Assembly (NCBI RefSeq): GCF_045037415.1
Contig: NZ_CP173440.1
Source: Escherichia coli
GTDB lineage: Bacteria; Pseudomonadota; Gammaproteobacteria; Enterobacterales; Enterobacteriaceae
Reading direction: 5' to 3' (one strand)
Length of the DNA stretch: 64,000 nt
In this document: in pieces, positions 57,101-63,100 of the stretch
Position numbering within the stretch: position 1 is the stretch's first letter
How the letters are laid out: each line of letters starts with the position of its first letter
Made by a program: the position numbers

Positions 57101-60100
57101 TTTCGGGCCACTGACGACGATTTGACCGGGTTTAAACCCAGCCTTCGCTAATTTGGTGAGGGCCAACTGATAACTAGCCTCTTCAGATGGAGCAAACTGG
57201 CGTCGGCCACGGCCTTCTGACTTTGTTCCTTTATGAAAGATGGCCATTAACGTAATGAACTTGATTTCATGGCCCTCAGAGAGAATAAGCTCTCTTTTTT
57301 TCTCCCCAGGCAACTCCAGAGCTGTAGCTGTGCGGACCAGGAGTAACGAATCATCCCCGGTACCGGGAAAAATTTTAAAAGAGTACGGCAGCTTCTCTCC
57401 CTTACGTTCCTGCATGAAAAAATCCAGGTGCTGGTGGATCTGGTAAACACTTGTGTGACGGATACGCAACCGAAACGCATTATCGTAGTAAATCATGGTT
57501 ATACCTTTTTCAAGAGGTGCAAAATGCTCAGGCGTTGATGGGGATCAGTCGGGGCTTTGTTGAATAAATAAGATTTCGTGCGAACGACCCTGTAGCTGGC
57601 TGGATTTTCAGGCAATACGCACGCTTTCTGGCATCCCAGCCTTTGTCATCCTGTTCAACGCACGCACCATGGCCATAGCTTCCGCTACCTGACCATCGTA
57701 GTCACGCAGCGTCAGTGAATCTCCCAACAACTGCTTCATTCTGTACATTGCCGTTTCCGCTATCGAGCGACGGTTATATTCCGTTGTCCATTTCCACCGT
57801 GCATTGCTTCCGCTCAGCCGCTGATTAGCAACGGCACGGTTGCGGTCTGCGTACTCACCGGGCCAGTAACCTGCTCCTTTTCGGGGAGGAATAAGCGCGC
57901 TGATTTTTTTGCGGCGCATTTCATCGTGACAAAGCCGTGTATCGTAAGCCCCGTCTGCCGCGGCTGCCCTGATTTTTCTGTGAGTCTGCCGGATAAGGCC
58001 CGGGAAGGCTTCTGAGTCCGTGACGTTATTCAGCGACAGGTCTGCACAGACAACTTCATGTGTGTTGCTGTCAACAGCAAGATGCAACTTTCGCCAGATA
58101 CGACGGCGCTCTTTGCCGTGCTTTCTGACTTTCCATTCGCCTTCACCAAAGACCTTCAGCCCGGTGGAATCAATCACCAGGTGTGCGATTTCACCCCGGG
58201 TGGACGTTTTGAAACTGACATTAACCGACTTTGCCCGCTTACTGACACTGGTGTAATCCGGGCAGCGCAACGGAACGTTCATCAGGGCAAAAATGGAATC
58301 AATAAAACCCTGCGCAGCCCGCAGGGTCAGCCGGAATACGCGTTTAATCACCAGAACGGTGGTGATGGCGAGATCAGAATAGCGCTGGGGCCTTCCTCGT
58401 GATGAAGGCGTTGCCGACTCATACCAGGCCTGAATCGCCTCATCATCCAGCCAGAAAGTGAGGGAGCCACGGTTGATGAGAGCTTTGTTGTAAGTGGACC
58501 AGTTGGTGATTCTGAACTTTTGCTTTGCCACGGAATGGTCTGAGTTGTCGGGAGGATGCGTGATCTGATCCTTCAACTCAGCAAAAGTTCGATTTATTCA
58601 ACAAAGCCCTTTGACATGCACAATTATTGTCTGCCCAATAGTCCGATAGTTAGCCTGTTTACAAAAACTGTTGCTGGTCATACTGGTGCTTTATTCCCGG
58701 TTAAGCGGGCTAGTTAACCCAGAGTGATGAACCATCCTGGAGTGGCAGATAAAGCAGAAAGAATGGATTTGTTGCCCTGATTTTTTCCGAATCTAAATAA
58801 AGATTAGCTTAATCACTCGTTGTTATGTTATAACATTAAATTAGCAATATTCTCAGCCAGCAGCACGGCCTGTGGGGGGCGGTTATTGAGAACGAATTCG
58901 GTGAAATCTGTATAGATGATGCATTGGTTATCAATGCAGATGAAGAAGTCTTCGAGATGAATAATGGCTGCATCTGCTGCACGGTGCGAGGAGATTTGAT
59001 TCATATCCTGAGTCGTCTGATGTACCGCCGCGATAAATTTGACCGTATTCTGATCGAATTCCACCGGGATGGCCAATCTACTGAGTGAAGCAAATGAAGA
59101 GAGAGCCGCTAACGATCCTGAATGGTTTTCTTAGTCCTAGTAAAAACATGCGGTTAAAAATTTGTTAATGCAGACACCTCAACCACAATTTCGATGTGCG
59201 TCATCGTGAACGATTTGAGCGGACAGGATGTCGGCGGCGTCCTGATTGCCAGTATAGAAATCAAGAAGGAACACCATGAAGCGCAATACCGTAAGTAATC
59301 TGACAGAAAAAGATGATTTTGATACGCTGGAAAGTATTCTCAGCGTTAATATTCATTCTCTGTTGCGGCCAGACGGCGGGACGTTGCTTTCTGACGTCCA
59401 TTTTGCGGTCAAAGCAGGAGAATGTCTGGCCATTATCGGGCCTAACGGCAGCGGTAAAACTTCCCTCGTGAGAGCGATTAGTCAGGAACTGACCCATCTA
59501 AAGGGGGACATTCTTCTGCGGGGCCGTTCTATGTCTGCTTTATCCCGTCAACAGCGAGCCCGGCTGGTTGCTGTTTTGGCCCAGAATGATACACCTGATA
59601 CGAGATTATCCCTTGAGGATTATGTAGCGCTGGGGCGTATCCCTCATGCCGGGGATGTACCGCGTAATGTACATGACGCGATTGTAGCAAATGCCATTAA
59701 AGAAACCGGATTACAACGGCTACGCAGGCGGTCACTTTTATCGCTTTCCGGCGGCGAAAGACAACGAGCGGCGCTGGCACGGGTACTGGCACAGACGCCC
59801 GACCTGGTATTGCTTGATGAACCCACCAATCATCTCGATCCTCCCGGGCGCGAGGAACTGCTTTCCCTTGTAAAAAACAAGGGGATTGCCGTCGTGGCGG
59901 TGTTGCACGATCTGACACTGACAGAATCATTTGCTGACCGTGTTCTCCTCTTGTCGCAGGGGCAATCAGTGATCTGTGACACACCGGAGAAGGTATTGGT
60001 ATCAGAATACCTTTATCCCGTTTTTGGCTTGACCAGTTTTACCGTACCGCATCCCCATACAGGAAAGGCGTTGCGTATTTTTGAAGTTCCGCATTATGTA

Positions 60101-63100
60101 TAAATTACTTTCCGAGAGTCAGTGATGAAAAAATTGTTTATATCCCTGCTGTCGGTACTGTCTGCTTCAGTAGCCAGTGCTGCCGATTTTCCTGTTACTA
60201 TTGAAAGTTGTGGGACTCCTGTAACATTCTCCGGCCCGCCGAAAAGGGCTGTGATCAACGACCTTAATATGGCAGAGATGGCGTTTGCACTGGATTTGCA
60301 GGATCGTATTGTTGGGCTGACCGGTATTAGTGGCTGGTACAAAATGACGCCGGAATTTAAAAAGGCGATGGGCTCGATCCCTGAACTGGCACCCAAATAT
60401 CCCACCCTGGAAACATTGCTGGCAGCCGAGCCTGATTTCTTTTTCGCTGGCTGGAACTATGGAATGAAAGTAGGCGGCGAAGTGACGCCGGATACGTTAA
60501 GCAAATATGGCATCAAGACTTTCGTTCTGAGTGAAAGCTGTGTGTTCACCACTGCGCACAAAAATAAAGCCACGATGGATCTGCTGTATAACGATATCCT
60601 CACGCTGGGTAAGATTTTTGGCAAGCGCAATGACGCACTGTCCCTAGTCAGCGGCTGGCAAAAGAGGCTGAGTGAACTGCCGAAGCCAGCGGCAGGTACC
60701 CGTCCTTTAAAGGTGTTCGTCTACGACTCAGGTGAGGATAAACCGTTTACCAGTGGTAAATATGCGATGCCTACGGCCATGATTGAGGCGGCTGGTGGTA
60801 AAAATGCAATGGAGGCGCTGGATACCAGTTGGGGAACGACGTCTTGGGAAAGCGTGGCCGCTACTGAGCCGGACTTCATTATTTTGTTAGATTACCAGAC
60901 GGGCAGCGGTGCGGATACACTGCGTCATTTTCTTGAGAATCATCCGTTAATGAAACTGACTCCGGCTGTTCAGCATCATCGATACCTGAAATTACAATAT
61001 GCTGAACTGACGCCGGGACCAGCTAATGTTGGTGCGGTGGAAAAACTCGCGTGGGCAATGTACCCGACAGAAGCGAAGTGATGCTCATGTCGTACCGTTA
61101 TCACTGGGTGATGTGGGGATCGATGGTCGTGCTGATTGGGTTAATGTTATTCAGCATAACCAGAGGGACAGTCTCACTGTCGCTAATGCAGGTGCTGGGT
61201 GCACTGAAGATTGTGGATGAGCCGGTATCTGCCATGGTCAGCAGAATTGTGACGGATTTACGCGTACCGAGGATGTTGCTCTCTGTGCTGACAGGGGCGG
61301 GACTGGCAATGGTAGGGGCATTGTTACAAACTACCACCCGTAACGATCTGGCTGATCCTTTTTTATTCGGGTTATCCTCCGGTGCGTCAGCAGGAGCGGT
61401 GCTGGTGATCACCCGTTTTGGTGATCGACTAGGAGTATTAACGCTCCCCGTATCGGCGTTTGTTGGTGGTGTGTGTTCCGCCATAGCAGTAATGCTGTTA
61501 TTTCATTTTAAAAAGCAACGCGGAGCTGAGCATCTAATTCTCTGCGGTCTTGCCATCTCTTTTTTGTTCGGGGCGCTGACTAGTTATTTTATTTTTTCGG
61601 GCGATCAGCGAGCCGCCAGCTCAGTGCTTTTCTGGTCACTGGGTGGCCTGGGATTAGCCACCTGGAATAATTTGCCTTTTGCAGTGTTCAGCCTGGTATT
61701 GCTGTTTGCCTTTGTCCTGTTGCGGTGGCGCTCTCTGGATGGTGTGCTGGCAGGAGAACAAACAGCGTTGTCGCTGGGGATTAACGTGAGTCGTCTGCGC
61801 ATCGAGATTTTTCTTTGTTGTGCACTGGCAACATCGTTGATGGTGGCATTAACCGGCGTGATTGGATTTGTTGGCTTAATGGTGCCTCATCTGTGTCGGC
61901 ATTTTGCAGGAGTTAAGCATCTGTTGTTGTTACCTCTGTGTGGCGTCTGGGGTGCAATATTACTGTGTGTCGGCGATATAGTCAGCCGGACGATACTGGC
62001 ACCACAGGAACTACCAATTGGCATTATTACGGCGGGCATTGGAGGGTTGTTTATTATCATGTTACTCGCGCGAAACTCGCCCTAGAGAATATGGGCGATT
62101 ACTCGCCGGGCCTCCTGTAATTTTCAAGCGATGTTATGAAACGATGGTAATCTAACTGATGGTTTGAGCGTGCCATGTAAGTAAAGAAGAACTGGCAAAC
62201 CTTAATGTTGCATTATATCATAACAAATGATAAGTGAGGCCCAATGTTTCTCTTACTGGTCGTGCTCCCAAGCATGCCTTTGGCGAAAAGGTTAGACCTC
62301 AGGCTGCGTTCAGCAACTACATGATATCTGTCTGGATTGTGACGGAGATGCGGTACTACTGCTTGTGGTTCAAAAAGGTGAAGCCTGCCACACAAGTCGG
62401 CGGAGTTGTTTTTACAACGCTACCGCCGGCCTTTTCATCCGACCCGTTTCTGGCAGGTGATGGAAAATGAGCTGGATGAAGTCGTCAGATCAAAAGGTTA
62501 CTTCTGGCTGGCCAGCCGTCCGGAATTCGCAGGTTCATGGTCACAGGCTGGTGGCATTGCGCGCCAGGCGCTGGGGGGCATGTGGTGGGCGAGTGTGCCG
62601 AAAGAACGTTGGCTAGAGGATGCTGAGTCACTGAAGTTCATCATGTCTAACTGGATAGATGGCATTGGTGATGCCCGTCAGGAACTCGTTTTTATTGGAA
62701 TGGATATGAATGAATCAAAACTGCGCAACAGACTGGATTCCGCCCTGTTAACGGATGCAGAAATGGCTGAAGGGCCTCAAAATTGGCGGCATTATCCCGA
62801 TCCTGTTGAGCCTTGGTTCGAAGAATGAATCGAAGGCACCCGTATTTGTCGGGTGCCTTCGTATGAGGGCGAAAAAGGGGCCATTTTTTAGCCCTTCTTC
62901 AGAATCACTCATATTAGAAAAAATACCTTTGTGATTATAAATCCTCATTAGTTTTGATGTGAAACTATTATGCATTACCCCATCGCCAAGTATGGTTGCC
63001 CCGTAAAGTATTCCGTCCTTAGTTAAAGCAGCTTTCACGTTTTTTATGACAACACCTTTATCCACCATCGCCCCAGGAAGACAATGTAAGAGATAATACA

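Follow-up and report, generated by a model that had tools for sequence, protein, structure and literature searches.

The eroded region behind an IS5-family element in the 64,000-nt window analysed here (contig NZ_CP173440.1) is probably a partial, Zur-regulated island, in which an intact type II importer of a zinc-relevant substrate persists with deletions all around it. The window comes from a Klebsiella pneumoniae virulence plasmid of the pLVPK type and matches hybrid virulence plasmids of this species at 100% identity, and 572 plasmids in PLSDB have at least 80% of the region. Homology links the region to the KpZM module of ICEKp, and the comparisons support reading it as the second copy, only partial, of the KpZM/pLVPK zinc-limitation (Zur-regulon) island, whose intact copy lies at 24.1-34.3 kb of the same plasmid. 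A previous sequence-only reading had proposed a second, partly eroded zinc-responsive unit at this position. The partial island copy and six deletions mapped against less eroded relatives support this proposal, and zinc responsiveness is suggested by a strong conserved box, by enrichment of such boxes across the family and by a Pectobacterium odoriferum zur mutant. The features of the region are as follows:

57553-58609, minus strand: IS5-family insertion sequence (PGAP, IS5 family transposase), which severs everything upstream of the unit
58609-58816, plus strand: kept intergenic and putative promoter region, 90.8% identical to Phytobacter L006 4327-4554
58817-58839, no strand assigned: predicted Zur box, 23.6 bits, with the core GTTATGTTATAACAT at 58820-58834
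58840-59078, plus strand: internal COG0523 GTPase fragment of the WD40-linked type, approximately residues 27-103 (Pfam cobW)
59094-59262, plus strand: N-terminal remnant of a second, dksA2-linked COG0523 gene, residues 1-57 (tblastn)
59276-60103, plus strand: ABC ATPase, intact, 275 aa (Pfam ABC_tran, E=1e-31)
60122-61081, plus strand: periplasmic binding protein, intact, 319 aa (Pfam Peripla_BP_2, E=1e-21)
61081-62085, plus strand: FecCD-family permease, intact (Pfam FecCD, E=1e-82)
62092-62243, plus strand: deletion junction (~0.67 kb), then the surviving hisI2 promoter region (alignment to L002)
62202-62229, no strand assigned: predicted degenerate Zur operator of the hisI2-zigA operon, 13.7 and 13.9 bits
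62244-62430, plus strand: hisI2 remnant (tblastn, residues 65-123 only, 81%; PGAP pseudogene)
62409-62828, plus strand: zigA C-terminal remnant, residues 269-407, 93% identical to ZigA (Pfam CobW_C)

The window contains two perfect copies of the 15-mer TTGTTATGTTATAAC, one at 28897-28911 and the other at 58820-58834. Allowing up to three mismatches, nine matches were found against 1.8 expected, and none of 100 shuffles gave nine. The 23-mers at 28895-28917 and 58818-58840, previously described as near-identical operator copies, agree at 17 of 23 positions including all 15 of the core, confirming the copy. A position weight matrix trained on 27 Zur boxes upstream of orthologous operons in other genomes placed the 58817-58839 site beside the other strong sites of the window (22.8-28.4 bits), while the peak in shuffled windows was at most 11.4 bits in 19 of 20 and 21.3 bits in the remaining one. 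The box occupies the same position in Phytobacter massiliensis (L006), Erwinia typographi (L008) and a less eroded Klebsiella plasmid (L085). Upstream, homology to Phytobacter begins exactly at 58609, the edge of the IS5-family element (transposase ORF of 969 bp, 57608-58576), and the matching L006 segment is the stretch from the preceding ABC ATPase gene to the COG0523 gene. A consensus promoter scan gave nothing at 58.8 kb, and neither a sigma-70 consensus nor a terminator-like site was predicted on the plus strand from the box to the ATPase start.

What is conserved upstream of the transporter genes across this family is the Zur box and not a Fur box. With up to three mismatches, 36 were found in 35 kb of upstream windows versus five in 1.17 Mb elsewhere, a 239-fold enrichment, and a box lies just upstream in 31 of 78 related loci (47 of 78 with up to five mismatches). 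In some loci the box heads a longer operon, in which the transporter genes come after folE2 and a gamma-carbonic-anhydrase-like gene or after cobW2-dksA2. These comparisons indicate that Zur control holds across the transporter family. In P. odoriferum, the ATPase gene BCS7_RS21045, the binding-protein gene RS21050 and RS21055, for an 'iron chelate uptake' permease, rank near the top of the derepressed genes when a zur mutant is profiled by RNA-seq (log2 +9.4, 9.5 and 7.6, ~190-740-fold), with znuABC at log2 2.1-2.4 (PMC10298282 Table S3). This derepression was left undiscussed by its authors (PMC10298282), and we assigned the counterpart by synteny (metB ... rpmE-priA) and gene sizes, not by sequence.

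The three transporter genes form one operon (59276-62085), and the earlier assignment to the siderophore/cobalamin importer class is confirmed by their domains. The ATPase ATG is preceded by an AAGGA ribosome-binding site, the signal peptide of the binding protein ends ASA/ADF, and the permease starts at 61081 according to PGAP, its longest ORF running from 61051. The permease resembles BtuC, FecC and FecD to about the same degree. An AlphaFold2 model of the binding protein (pLDDT 89.7) found its closest solved structure in 4mlz, which is uncharacterised, and the conserved residues of the protein are largely aromatic with one invariant histidine, unlike the ZnuA-type zinc site.

The nature of the cargo was approached through relatives. 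Operons with binding proteins 52-62% identical, in alpha-, beta- and marine gamma-proteobacteria, carry cobalamin riboswitches, confirmed by Rfam in Rhizobiales, Stappia, Rhodoferax/Curvibacter and Oceanospirillales, and adjoin cobalt-insertion genes, the neighbours being cobO on one side and cobW-cobN on the other, a downstream cbiD-to-cbiK cluster, or a preceding CbiM-like gene; no riboswitch was found in the window. Comparing 42 binding proteins of the Zur type with 17 of the riboswitch type left just two distinguishing positions, both conservative (I/L and Y/F). The two groups differ so little in their conserved residues that the cargo is probably shared, and because zinc controls the relatives in some bacteria and vitamin B12 in others, it may be zinc, cobalt or a carrier-bound form. 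Judged from these sequences, the shared cargo is probably zinc or cobalt, free or chelated, with a corrinoid less likely. Our best guess is a divalent metal (Zn2+, and probably Co2+ too) taken up as the free ion or as a small porin-permeable chelate; the chelated metal suggested previously is a possible cargo.

The absence of binding-site differences from the riboswitch-controlled relatives also allows that, under the same Zur control, the cargo is cobalt or a corrinoid and not zinc, a reading that we consider possible and clearly less probable than a zinc-relevant substrate. Cobalt imported under zinc starvation would metalate zinc-independent or cambialistic paralogues, and imported B12 would allow a switch to B12-dependent enzymes, sparing zinc. 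In addition to the riboswitches and the cobalt-related gene settings, this reading draws on the two NCBIfam families that the binding protein and the cobalt-importer component CbtJ both match. It is opposed by Zur control, a hallmark of zinc acquisition, and by the setting of the operon among zinc-type COG0523 and zinc-independent paralogue genes. Following the Irving-Williams series, a Co2+-binding site normally binds Zn2+ at least as tightly, so that zinc and cobalt as cargo are not exclusive. Against a corrinoid in particular, the binding protein matched BtuF with a negligible 27.7 bits (cut-off 234), no TonB-dependent receptor was a conserved neighbour among 80 loci, and the Rhodoferax clusters already contain a separate BtuF-like protein. 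Support of another kind comes from Pseudomonas aeruginosa, in which a znuA mutation raised cellular cobalt and B12 was considered for PA2911-PA2914 (Pederick et al. 2015, PMC4542158).

Comparison with homologous loci, using the less eroded Phytobacter L006 and E. typographi L008 as references, recovered the ancestral gene order and the deletion junctions. The order COG0523, WD40, cobW2, dksA2, ATPase is intact in E. typographi L008 and Raoultella L011. The ancestral operon would have comprised a Zur box, a COG0523 GTPase, a WD40 protein, a second COG0523 protein, DksA2, the ATPase, the binding protein and the FecCD permease, its neighbours being a divergent gene for a Zur-like regulator and a separate hisI2-zigA operon, likewise preceded by a Zur box. 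The short internal COG0523 fragment noted previously is confirmed by a Pfam cobW match over 58840-59058 (E=5e-20, profile positions 17-90), but two remnants of different subfamilies, not one, lie upstream of the transporter. The first retains the GCICCT motif, has lost the P-loop and the C-terminal domain, and is 94% identical to L006 4663-4895 and merely 41% to ZigA. On its 5' side a ~100-bp deletion took the ribosome-binding site, start codon and P-loop, and on its 3' side a 2063-bp deletion took the remainder of the gene and the WD40 gene (identified in L006). The second remnant, 60-64% identical to CobW-family residues 1-22 and 33-57 by tblastn, has a mutated P-loop and a broken frame, the rest of this gene and dksA2 having been lost in a ~1.1-kb deletion also present in Phytobacter.

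Downstream of the permease, window 62100-62245 aligns base for base with L002 12000-12155, whereas L002 11316-12000 is missing; this ~0.67-kb deletion removed the divergent Zur-like (Fur-family) regulator gene, whose L002 counterpart has Zur as best NCBIfam match, below the cut-off. The composite operator-like site placed earlier at 62198-62231 does exist, but it is a weak, mutated operator of the destroyed hisI2-zigA operon and not that of the transporter. Its core has three mismatches versus one in the E. coli/KpZM counterpart, and the intact paralogous operator at 33667-33689 scores 22.8 bits; the intact hisI2 site was predicted on pLVPK by Haas et al. 2009 (PMC2770081). The hisI2 gene suffered an in-frame ~186-bp deletion between TTACTGG repeats and then truncation, and zigA, complete in pM1026-3Ar.1, has lost part of its length in pKPN49_1.

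Altogether, six deletions removed or truncated six neighbouring genes, sparing the box and the transporter, and the box now lies ~440 bp ahead of the intact operon. The intermediate Klebsiella plasmids L085 and L086 demonstrate that erosion was stepwise. At 24-34 kb the window also carries zigA, hisI2, the second COG0523 gene, dksA2 and a (divergent) Zur-like regulator gene in intact form, and no intact copy of the WD40-linked COG0523 gene or the WD40 gene was found anywhere in it. The transporter operon is the sole copy in the window, the accessory genes being intact only in the other island copy.

That the whole unit is a dead remnant, with transporter genes intact only through too little time and unexpressed or non-functional, is unlikely. 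It would fit the decay of everything surrounding these genes, and the ~100-bp deletion abutting the box may have taken the native transcription start and 5' untranslated region. Moreover, the ATPase gene is truncated in chromosomal KpZM copies, so the transporter is not indispensable to Klebsiella, and among post-erosion plasmid lineages the transporter genes have 24 differences, 14 of them non-synonymous, with a concatenated dN/dS of 0.47 (four of five ATPase differences being non-synonymous). However, the six deletions are independent, at least three differ among plasmid lineages, and none of them touched the 2.8-kb operon or the 23-bp box. The transporter genes are free of stop codons and frameshifts in both the window and pM1026-3Ar.1 (L085), sampled plasmid records list the same three genes as intact, and the 572 plasmids mentioned above hold most of the region. 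In the data examined, no complete copy other than the plasmid transporter is associated with Klebsiella. Against Phytobacter, dN/dS was 0.21 for the ATPase, 0.16 for the binding protein and 0.06 for the permease, compared to 0.62 for the zigA remnant. Within the post-erosion lineages, 58% non-synonymous differences versus a neutral expectation of ~76% (our estimate) suggest marginal constraint.

An ordinary iron-siderophore or haem importer under Fur, with an incidental Zur-like box, is highly improbable: the database annotation 'iron ABC transporter permease', a fold whose closest matches, once uncharacterised proteins are set aside, are haem and siderophore binding proteins, and a weak Fur-box-like 19-mer at 58796-58814 (five mismatches) are outweighed by the poor quality of this site and its lack of conservation in E. 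typographi, by the failure of the binding protein to reach any curated NCBIfam cut-off, iron families included, by the conservation of Zur rather than Fur boxes, by the massive response of the Pectobacterium counterpart to zur deletion (PMC10298282), and by a P. protegens PA2911-14 homologue with no association with iron recruitment (work cited in PMC4542158).

For the favoured reading of a Zur-controlled importer in a partial island, it is proposed that in zinc-replete cells Zn-loaded Zur would occupy 58817-58839 and block the promoter. The likeliest binder is the chromosomal Zur, and plasmid Fur-family paralogues may bind too. Zinc starvation, imposed for example by host calprotectin, would release repression, and a transcript running through the pseudogene leader would reach the ATPase, binding-protein and permease genes, providing a type II (BtuCD/FecCDE-class) importer for uptake of a zinc-relevant substrate from the periplasm.

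Among known systems, E. coli BtuCD-F shares the type II ABC importer architecture with the plasmid transporter, whose binding protein is not BtuF by the score given above. Helicobacter pylori FecDE/CeuE, for nickel-(histidine)2, and Haemophilus MolABC set a precedent for class III binding proteins that, paired with FecCD-type permeases, carry small chelated metals or ions instead of siderophores. Structures of both (4ino and 3psa) are among the fold matches, at a distant 18-21% identity. CbtJKL of Sinorhizobium meliloti, a Co2+ ABC importer controlled by a cobalamin riboswitch (summarised in PMC7689651), belongs to the same FecCD/Peripla_BP_2 class and stands behind that riboswitch, as do the relatives of the plasmid operon in alpha- and beta-proteobacteria. 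Both CbtJ and the plasmid binding protein fall below threshold in the two families they share. Identities of 25% (binding protein), 39% (permease) and 41% (ATPase) and the different order of binding protein, permease and ATPase indicate that CbtJKL is not an orthologue.

P. aeruginosa PA2911-PA2914 resembles the plasmid operon in its order of ATPase, binding protein and permease, and in having an upstream Zur site and induction by zinc limitation, as predicted for the plasmid operon (PMC4542158). Both binding proteins belong to the chelate (A-II) class and not the ZnuA class, and its authors proposed zinc-chelate and cobalamin as substrates (Pederick et al. 2015, PMC4542158). Unlike the plasmid operon and the 80 related loci, in which none is conserved, PA2911-PA2914 begins with a TonB-dependent receptor. 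No Pseudomonas protein was found among relatives at 52% identity or above, the likeness being one of gene order, class and regulation. The Pectobacterium loci are 64-67% identical to the plasmid proteins, with a Zur box ~33 bp upstream and a position between metB and rpmE-priA. The three genes BCS7_RS21045-RS21055 match the plasmid operon in order and sizes, but are chromosomal, stand alone and lack COG0523 remnants. The KpZM/pLVPK cluster belongs to the same island family, with 95-99% nucleotide identity across shared genes (PMC6202445, PMC2770081). Zur sites on pLVPK were predicted for hisI2-yciC and dksA2-folE2-cam (Haas et al. 2009, PMC2770081), and the 58.8-kb box and transporter are described in neither PMC6202445 nor PMC2770081. 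KpZM reverses the pattern of the window, its ATPase gene being truncated at the integrase boundary and its box absent, whereas hisI2, zigA and the Zur-like gene are intact.

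Ahead of a COG0523 fragment and an importer of the siderophore/cobalamin class, the sequence-only reading had placed a near-identical copy of an operator, and both the finding and this reading of it proved to be essentially right. The 15-mer TTGTTATGTTATAAC has exact matches at 28897-28911 and 58820-58834, and the fragment and three full-length transporter genes follow the second copy. The unit is made up as follows.

58817-58839, Zur box
58840-59058 (fragment 58840-59078), internal piece of a COG0523 GTPase gene; Pfam cobW E=5e-20, profile positions 17-90
59094-59262, second COG0523 remnant, residues 1-57, of the dksA2-linked type; P-loop mutated, frame broken
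59276-60103, ABC ATPase, full length; PF00005 E=1e-31
60122-61081, Peripla_BP_2 binding protein, full length; PF01497 E=1e-21
61081-62085, FecCD permease, full length; PF01032 E=1e-82

With all three components full length, the operon belongs to the type II ABC importers (BtuCD/FecCDE class). The site at 58817-58839 fits the gamma-proteobacterial Zur palindrome (~23 bp, GAAATGTTATAWTATAACATTTC), with 3 mismatches over the 19-nt core. A weight matrix trained on 27 distinct boxes that precede this transporter elsewhere gave it 23.6 bits, compared with 22.8-28.4 bits for the other strong sites in the window, and most shuffled windows peaked below 11.4 bits. Nine sites with up to three mismatches to the 15-mer were found in the window against 1.8 expected, a count reached in 0 of 100 shuffles. 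The box is kept at the orthologous position in Phytobacter, E. typographi and the plasmid pM1026-3Ar.1. Fur was rejected as the main regulator, since the region offers only a weak Fur-like 19-mer (58796-58814, 5/19 mismatches) just ahead of the Zur box; the window has one other match of this kind, and the 19-mer shows no conservation in Erwinia typographi. A sigma-70 consensus scan found no site at 58.8 kb, where the adjoining 100 bp are deleted, and neither a sigma-70 consensus site nor a terminator-like site was predicted on the + strand from the box to the ATPase start; the deletion adjoining the box may have altered the transcription start. The ATPase ATG is preceded by a good ribosome-binding site.

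Control by Zur appears to be a property of the family. Roughly 6,900 homologues were detected. For 78 related loci the ATPase gene was located, and their upstream zones (-400 to +60 of the ATPase start, 35 kb together) contain 36 boxes at ≤3 mismatches versus 5 in the other 1.17 Mb, a 239-fold enrichment. An upstream box is present in 31 of the 78 loci at ≤3 mismatches, in 40 at ≤4 and in 47 at ≤5, and in loci lacking an adjacent box it often heads a longer operon, such as the COG0523-led operons of Phytobacter massiliensis (L006), Erwinia typographi (L008) and Raoultella (L011). Enterobacter sp. Ag1 and Cedecea neteri share the order folE2, a gamma-carbonic-anhydrase-like gene, the transporter and an amidohydrolase. 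Experimental data come from RNA-seq of a Pectobacterium odoriferum zur mutant (PMC10298282, Table S3), in which BCS7_RS21045 (ABC ATPase, 798 bp), BCS7_RS21050 (binding protein, 930 bp) and BCS7_RS21055 ('iron chelate uptake' permease, 1010 bp) are derepressed with log2 fold changes of 9.4, 9.5 and 7.6, respectively, compared with only 2.1-2.4 for znuABC in the same mutant. These genes lie between metB and rpmE-priA, and matching flanks, with MetL-MetB on the upstream and PriA on the downstream side, enclose the Pectobacterium, Brenneria and Samsonia loci; the assignment of the BCS7 genes as the counterpart of the plasmid operon rests on synteny and gene sizes. By analogy, the derepression lends indirect support to the Zn-Zur binding and zinc-repressed transcription predicted at the 58.8-kb box.

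A further strong Zur box in the window, at 37810-37832 with 26 bits, stands at the head of an Opp/Nik-type ABC system (37810-44095). Besides two ATPases, the system has a cluster-C binding protein (40775-42301), a fused permease (42320-44095) and an MFS transporter (39520-40764). Its layout recalls opine-metallophore (Cnt-like) import/export systems. P. odoriferum BCS7_RS07430-07465, with annotations matching this set, are derepressed by log2 5.7-8.3 in the zur mutant (PMC10298282).

The proposal of a second, partly eroded unit was borne out by comparison with intact homologous loci, of which those of Phytobacter massiliensis and Erwinia typographi are the nearest. A single COG0523 fragment had been noticed; it is present, and the remnant at 59094-59262 had been missed, as had the hisI2 and zigA remnants 3' of the permease and the intact island at 24.1-34.3 kb. 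The fragment at 58840-59078 keeps the CxCC motif (GCICCT) and has lost the P-loop (GxxGxGKT) and the CobW_C domain by deletion, and as judged from its sequence it is a pseudogene fragment and not a full GTPase gene. In E. typographi the order is Zur box, COG0523 (449 aa), WD40 protein (345 aa), second COG0523, dksA2, ATPase, binding protein and permease. In four loci (L002, L005, L006 and L007) the permease gene has a Zur-like Fur-family gene, divergently oriented, and a hisI2-zigA operon on its 3' side; in the window, a hisI2 remnant is followed by a C-terminal zigA remnant. Relative to the arrangements of L006/L008 and of L002, L005 and L007, six deletions were called in the window.

a, ~100 bp, starting where the box ends on its 3' side; the first COG0523 gene loses its ribosome-binding site, start codon and P-loop
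b, 2063 bp; remainder of the first COG0523 gene and the WD40 gene lost
c, ~1.1 kb, a deletion that Phytobacter already has; dksA2 lost, with the bulk of the second COG0523 gene
d, ~0.67 kb; Zur-like regulator gene lost
e, ~186 bp, in frame, between TTACTGG repeats; part of hisI2 lost
f, ~0.9 kb; hisI2 joined to zigA codon 269

Two further Klebsiella plasmids represent intermediate states. Plasmid pM1026-3Ar.1 has deletions b, d and e and lacks a and f, so that its zigA is intact, and its COG0523 P-loop is already mutated; pKPN49_1 has deletion a together with a different, smaller hisI2-zigA deletion. As these plasmids carry differing subsets of the deletions, erosion proceeded step by step and in part independently in the different lineages. 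No step touched the box or the transporter.

The gene pair gone from the plasmid lies behind a Zur box in the relatives (L006:4589-6960, L008:3476-5850) and encodes a COG0523 GTPase of 449 aa and a WD40 beta-propeller protein of 345 aa. Prokaryotic members of COG0523 subfamily 5, which holds most eukaryotic homologues, were noted to cluster with WD40 genes (Haas 2009, PMC2770081). The IS5 element that truncates the zinc unit adjoins what is left of a type I-E CRISPR-Cas system, a Cas6/CasE gene and a DEAD/DEAH helicase fragment (55965-57496).

The composite operator-like site noticed just downstream of the permease gene (62198-62231) is of a different origin. It aligns with the hisI2 operator, window 62100-62245 matching the Fur-like/hisI2 intergenic region of KpZM, the zinc-limitation module of ICEKp, position for position. 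The intact pLVPK site GAtATGTTATAAcgTAACATcaa, predicted for hisI2-yciC by Haas et al. 2009 (PMC2770081), was found at 33667-33689 with 22.8 bits. In the 62.2-kb copy the core is substituted (TGTTGCATTATATCA versus TGTTACGTTATAACA), with three substitutions from consensus versus one in the KpZM counterpart, and 62202-62229 scores 13.7 and 13.9 bits versus 22.8-28.4 at other sites, below what a functional site would be expected to give. The site is thus the decayed operator of a destroyed operon and not part of the transporter unit.

Nucleotide homology and common gene content with the ICEKp-associated module place the unit in the KpZM/pLVPK zinc-limitation island. The transporter shares 95.6% nucleotide identity with the E. 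coli chromosomal KpZM copy, and the hisI2 and zigA remnants 93-96.5%. A first, intact island copy at 24100-34300 is 99.2% identical to the KpZM copy adjoining ICEKp in E. coli, and contains folE2, dksA2, a COG0523 gene, two Fur-family regulators, cysS2, an oxidoreductase, a FeoB-like protein, zigA and hisI2, with Zur boxes at 25604-25626, 28894-28916 and 33667-33689. No copy of the transporter was found in this island (24.1-34.3 kb). The plasmid thus keeps the accessory genes in the first copy and the transporter only in the second, and chromosomal KpZM copies retain the accessory genes with a 5'-truncated ATPase and no box; chromosomal KpZM and plasmid copies show a complementary retention pattern. 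As for provenance, pLVPK-type K. pneumoniae virulence plasmids conjugated into E. coli are 100% identical to window 58600-63500, and IncHI1B/IncFIB hybrid virulence plasmids, e.g. phvKpST395_NDM1_1657, to window 33000-57600. In PLSDB, 612 plasmids match the region, 572 of them with at least 80% of it, and nearly all are from Klebsiella.

The Zur-regulated island on pLVPK (Haas et al. 2009, PMC2770081) and KpZM (Lam et al. 2018, PMC6202445) have been noted before; neither paper describes the 58.8-kb box or the transporter, and the literature on pLVPK yielded nothing beyond Haas 2009 for this operator or transporter, nor did a large review of metallostasis contain a passage bearing on them. The 28.9-kb box, which sits within the cysS2-oxidoreductase gene string, is absent from the Haas 2009 list. 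At the window end, a second intact dksA2-linked COG0523 gene starts on the minus strand (63945-64000 and beyond; L001:11319-12518), 97.6% identical to the gene at 25651-26847, and because this copy begins there the eroded island copy reaches beyond the window. Among the genes annotated next in the plasmid record are those for a c-type lysozyme inhibitor and a peptide deformylase. A perfect tandem array at 63681-63816 (8-bp unit ATGGAAAT x 17) gives repetitive ORFs in several frames on both strands.

Relative to Phytobacter, dN/dS is 0.21 for the ATPase, 0.16 for the binding protein and 0.06 for the permease, and 0.62 for the zigA remnant. Between the post-erosion lineages (window versus pM1026-3Ar.1) there are 24 differences, 14 of them non-synonymous (dN/dS 0.47), giving marginal evidence of constraint on the transporter genes after erosion. 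Having outlasted six deletions together with its box, in a region of which ~570 sequenced plasmids carry at least 80%, the transporter is a concrete candidate for a plasmid-borne metal-acquisition function. Host-imposed zinc starvation is a condition under which hypervirulent K. pneumoniae has to grow, and its virulence plasmid bears a large, almost unstudied Zur-regulon island.

Structural modelling gave the binding protein a class III fold (pLDDT 89.7). The nearest solved structures are 4mlz (29% identity) and then 4n01, both uncharacterised structural-genomics proteins, followed by haem-binding proteins, MolA, BtuF and CeuE. No curated NCBIfam cut-off was reached by the protein; its best sub-threshold matches, the 'putative F420-0 ABC transporter' set and EitA, are the two that S. 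meliloti CbtJ also matches. An alignment of 44 family members has 66 invariant columns, in which Trp, Tyr, Phe and Met are frequent and which include two Cys (Cys30, Cys140) and a single His (His274). Such a set does not resemble a ZnuA-type zinc site.

Unexpected was the regulation of relatives whose binding proteins are 52-62% identical, in which Rfam-confirmed cobalamin riboswitches lie directly upstream of the operon in Rhizobiales, Stappia, Rhodoferax and Oceanospirillales. Loci preceded by a riboswitch and lacking a Zur box are L041, L044, L045, L048, L050, L052, L058, L060, L061, L064, L074-L076, L078, L080, L082 and L083; in L041 (Curvibacter sp. CHRR-16) the riboswitch precedes nrdAB and may not control the transporter. 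In an Enterobacterales-like contig labelled Martelella alba, a riboswitch (L038:7699-7877) lies between the ATPase and binding-protein genes, where its control would cover only the binding-protein and permease genes. The Rhodoferax operon lies within a cob cluster, between cobO and cobW-cobN, and a CbiM-like gene precedes the operon in Marinomonas and Rhodoferax. Vibrio nigripulchritudo and V. tasmaniensis each have two transporter copies (L077:2212-11682, L081:181-8045), the first with a Zur box; the second has no box and is followed directly by a cobalamin biosynthesis cluster (cbiD to cbiK) under riboswitch control. Among the relatives the two kinds of element, Zur box and riboswitch, exclude each other and track the binding-protein tree. 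The riboswitch form is found in alpha-, beta- and marine gamma-proteobacteria beside cobalt-insertion genes, and the Zur form in Enterobacterales and Vibrionaceae beside zinc-type COG0523 genes.

Visibly different binding sites in the two groups were rejected, as 42 Zur-type and 17 riboswitch-type binding proteins differ at only two conservative positions (I/L, Y/F). One ligand for both groups would be the simplest interpretation of these sequences, and the riboswitch-group neighbourhoods point to cobalt supply, by the logic that identified CbtJKL. On these two grounds, we favour the plasmid operon as a divalent-metal importer for Zn2+ and Co2+, taken up as the free ion or as a small porin-passing chelate, with the regulator determining which metal economy the importer would serve. 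Alternatively, the operon may encode a dedicated cobalt or corrinoid importer recruited into the Zur regulon for zinc sparing. Broader still, and in our view rather unlikely, is that an unnamed, widespread family has swapped its control between riboswitch and Zur and that, with a cargo common to both groups, the plasmid importer is a zinc-starvation-induced importer of cobalt, corrinoid or a metal-agnostic chelate. If the cargo is indeed common, zinc limitation and cobalt/B12 use would be tied together directly at the molecular level, a connection for which there have so far been only hints, e.g. the raised cobalt of a P. aeruginosa znuA mutant (PMC4542158). The family is a clean test case, being wired to Zur in some lineages and to a cobalamin riboswitch in others, and this duality renders the substrate question sharply testable. 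Tests in this family could settle the cargo of Zur-regulated 'iron/B12-like' ABC systems, a question posed since PA2911-14 was described in 2015.

Compared with ZnuABC and cluster A-I importers, the plasmid operon has PF01497 and FecCD components instead of a ZnuA-type PF01297 protein and an ABC-3 permease, and a single invariant histidine in 44 family sequences instead of the His-rich metal site of ZnuA. It also differs from BtuCD-F: the binding protein scores 27.7 bits against the BtuF cut-off of 234, a negligible match, and the permease 187-188 bits against the BtuC equivalog cut-offs of 334 and 461. An Rfam search of the window gave no family match and thus no cobalamin riboswitch on the plasmid; such control is common for B12 importers but not universal. 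S. meliloti CbtJKL is only a distant relative, with 25%, 39% and 41% identity to CbtJ, CbtK and CbtL and another gene order, and is not an orthologue. No TonB-dependent receptor was found in this region of the window, and no large outer-membrane receptor recurs as a neighbour in 80 related loci. Protein searches with the plasmid binding protein and a Marinomonas relative returned no Pseudomonas entry among the matches listed, nor did a genome scan limited to relatives of at least 52% identity list any. Likened by description, the closest described analogue is the Zur-regulated P. aeruginosa PA2911-PA2914, for which zinc-chelate and cobalamin were raised as candidate substrates (Pederick 2015, PMC4542158). 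The plasmid operon shares its Zur site and its order of ATPase, A-II-class binding protein and permease, and differs in the TonB-dependent receptor that is co-transcribed there and absent here. The plasmid operon is a well-anchored member of a known, uncharacterised kind of importer and not a new kind of system; what the analysis adds is its precise erosion history, a new assignment for the 62.2-kb site, evidence for Zur control from the family at large and from experiment, and the Zur/riboswitch duality.
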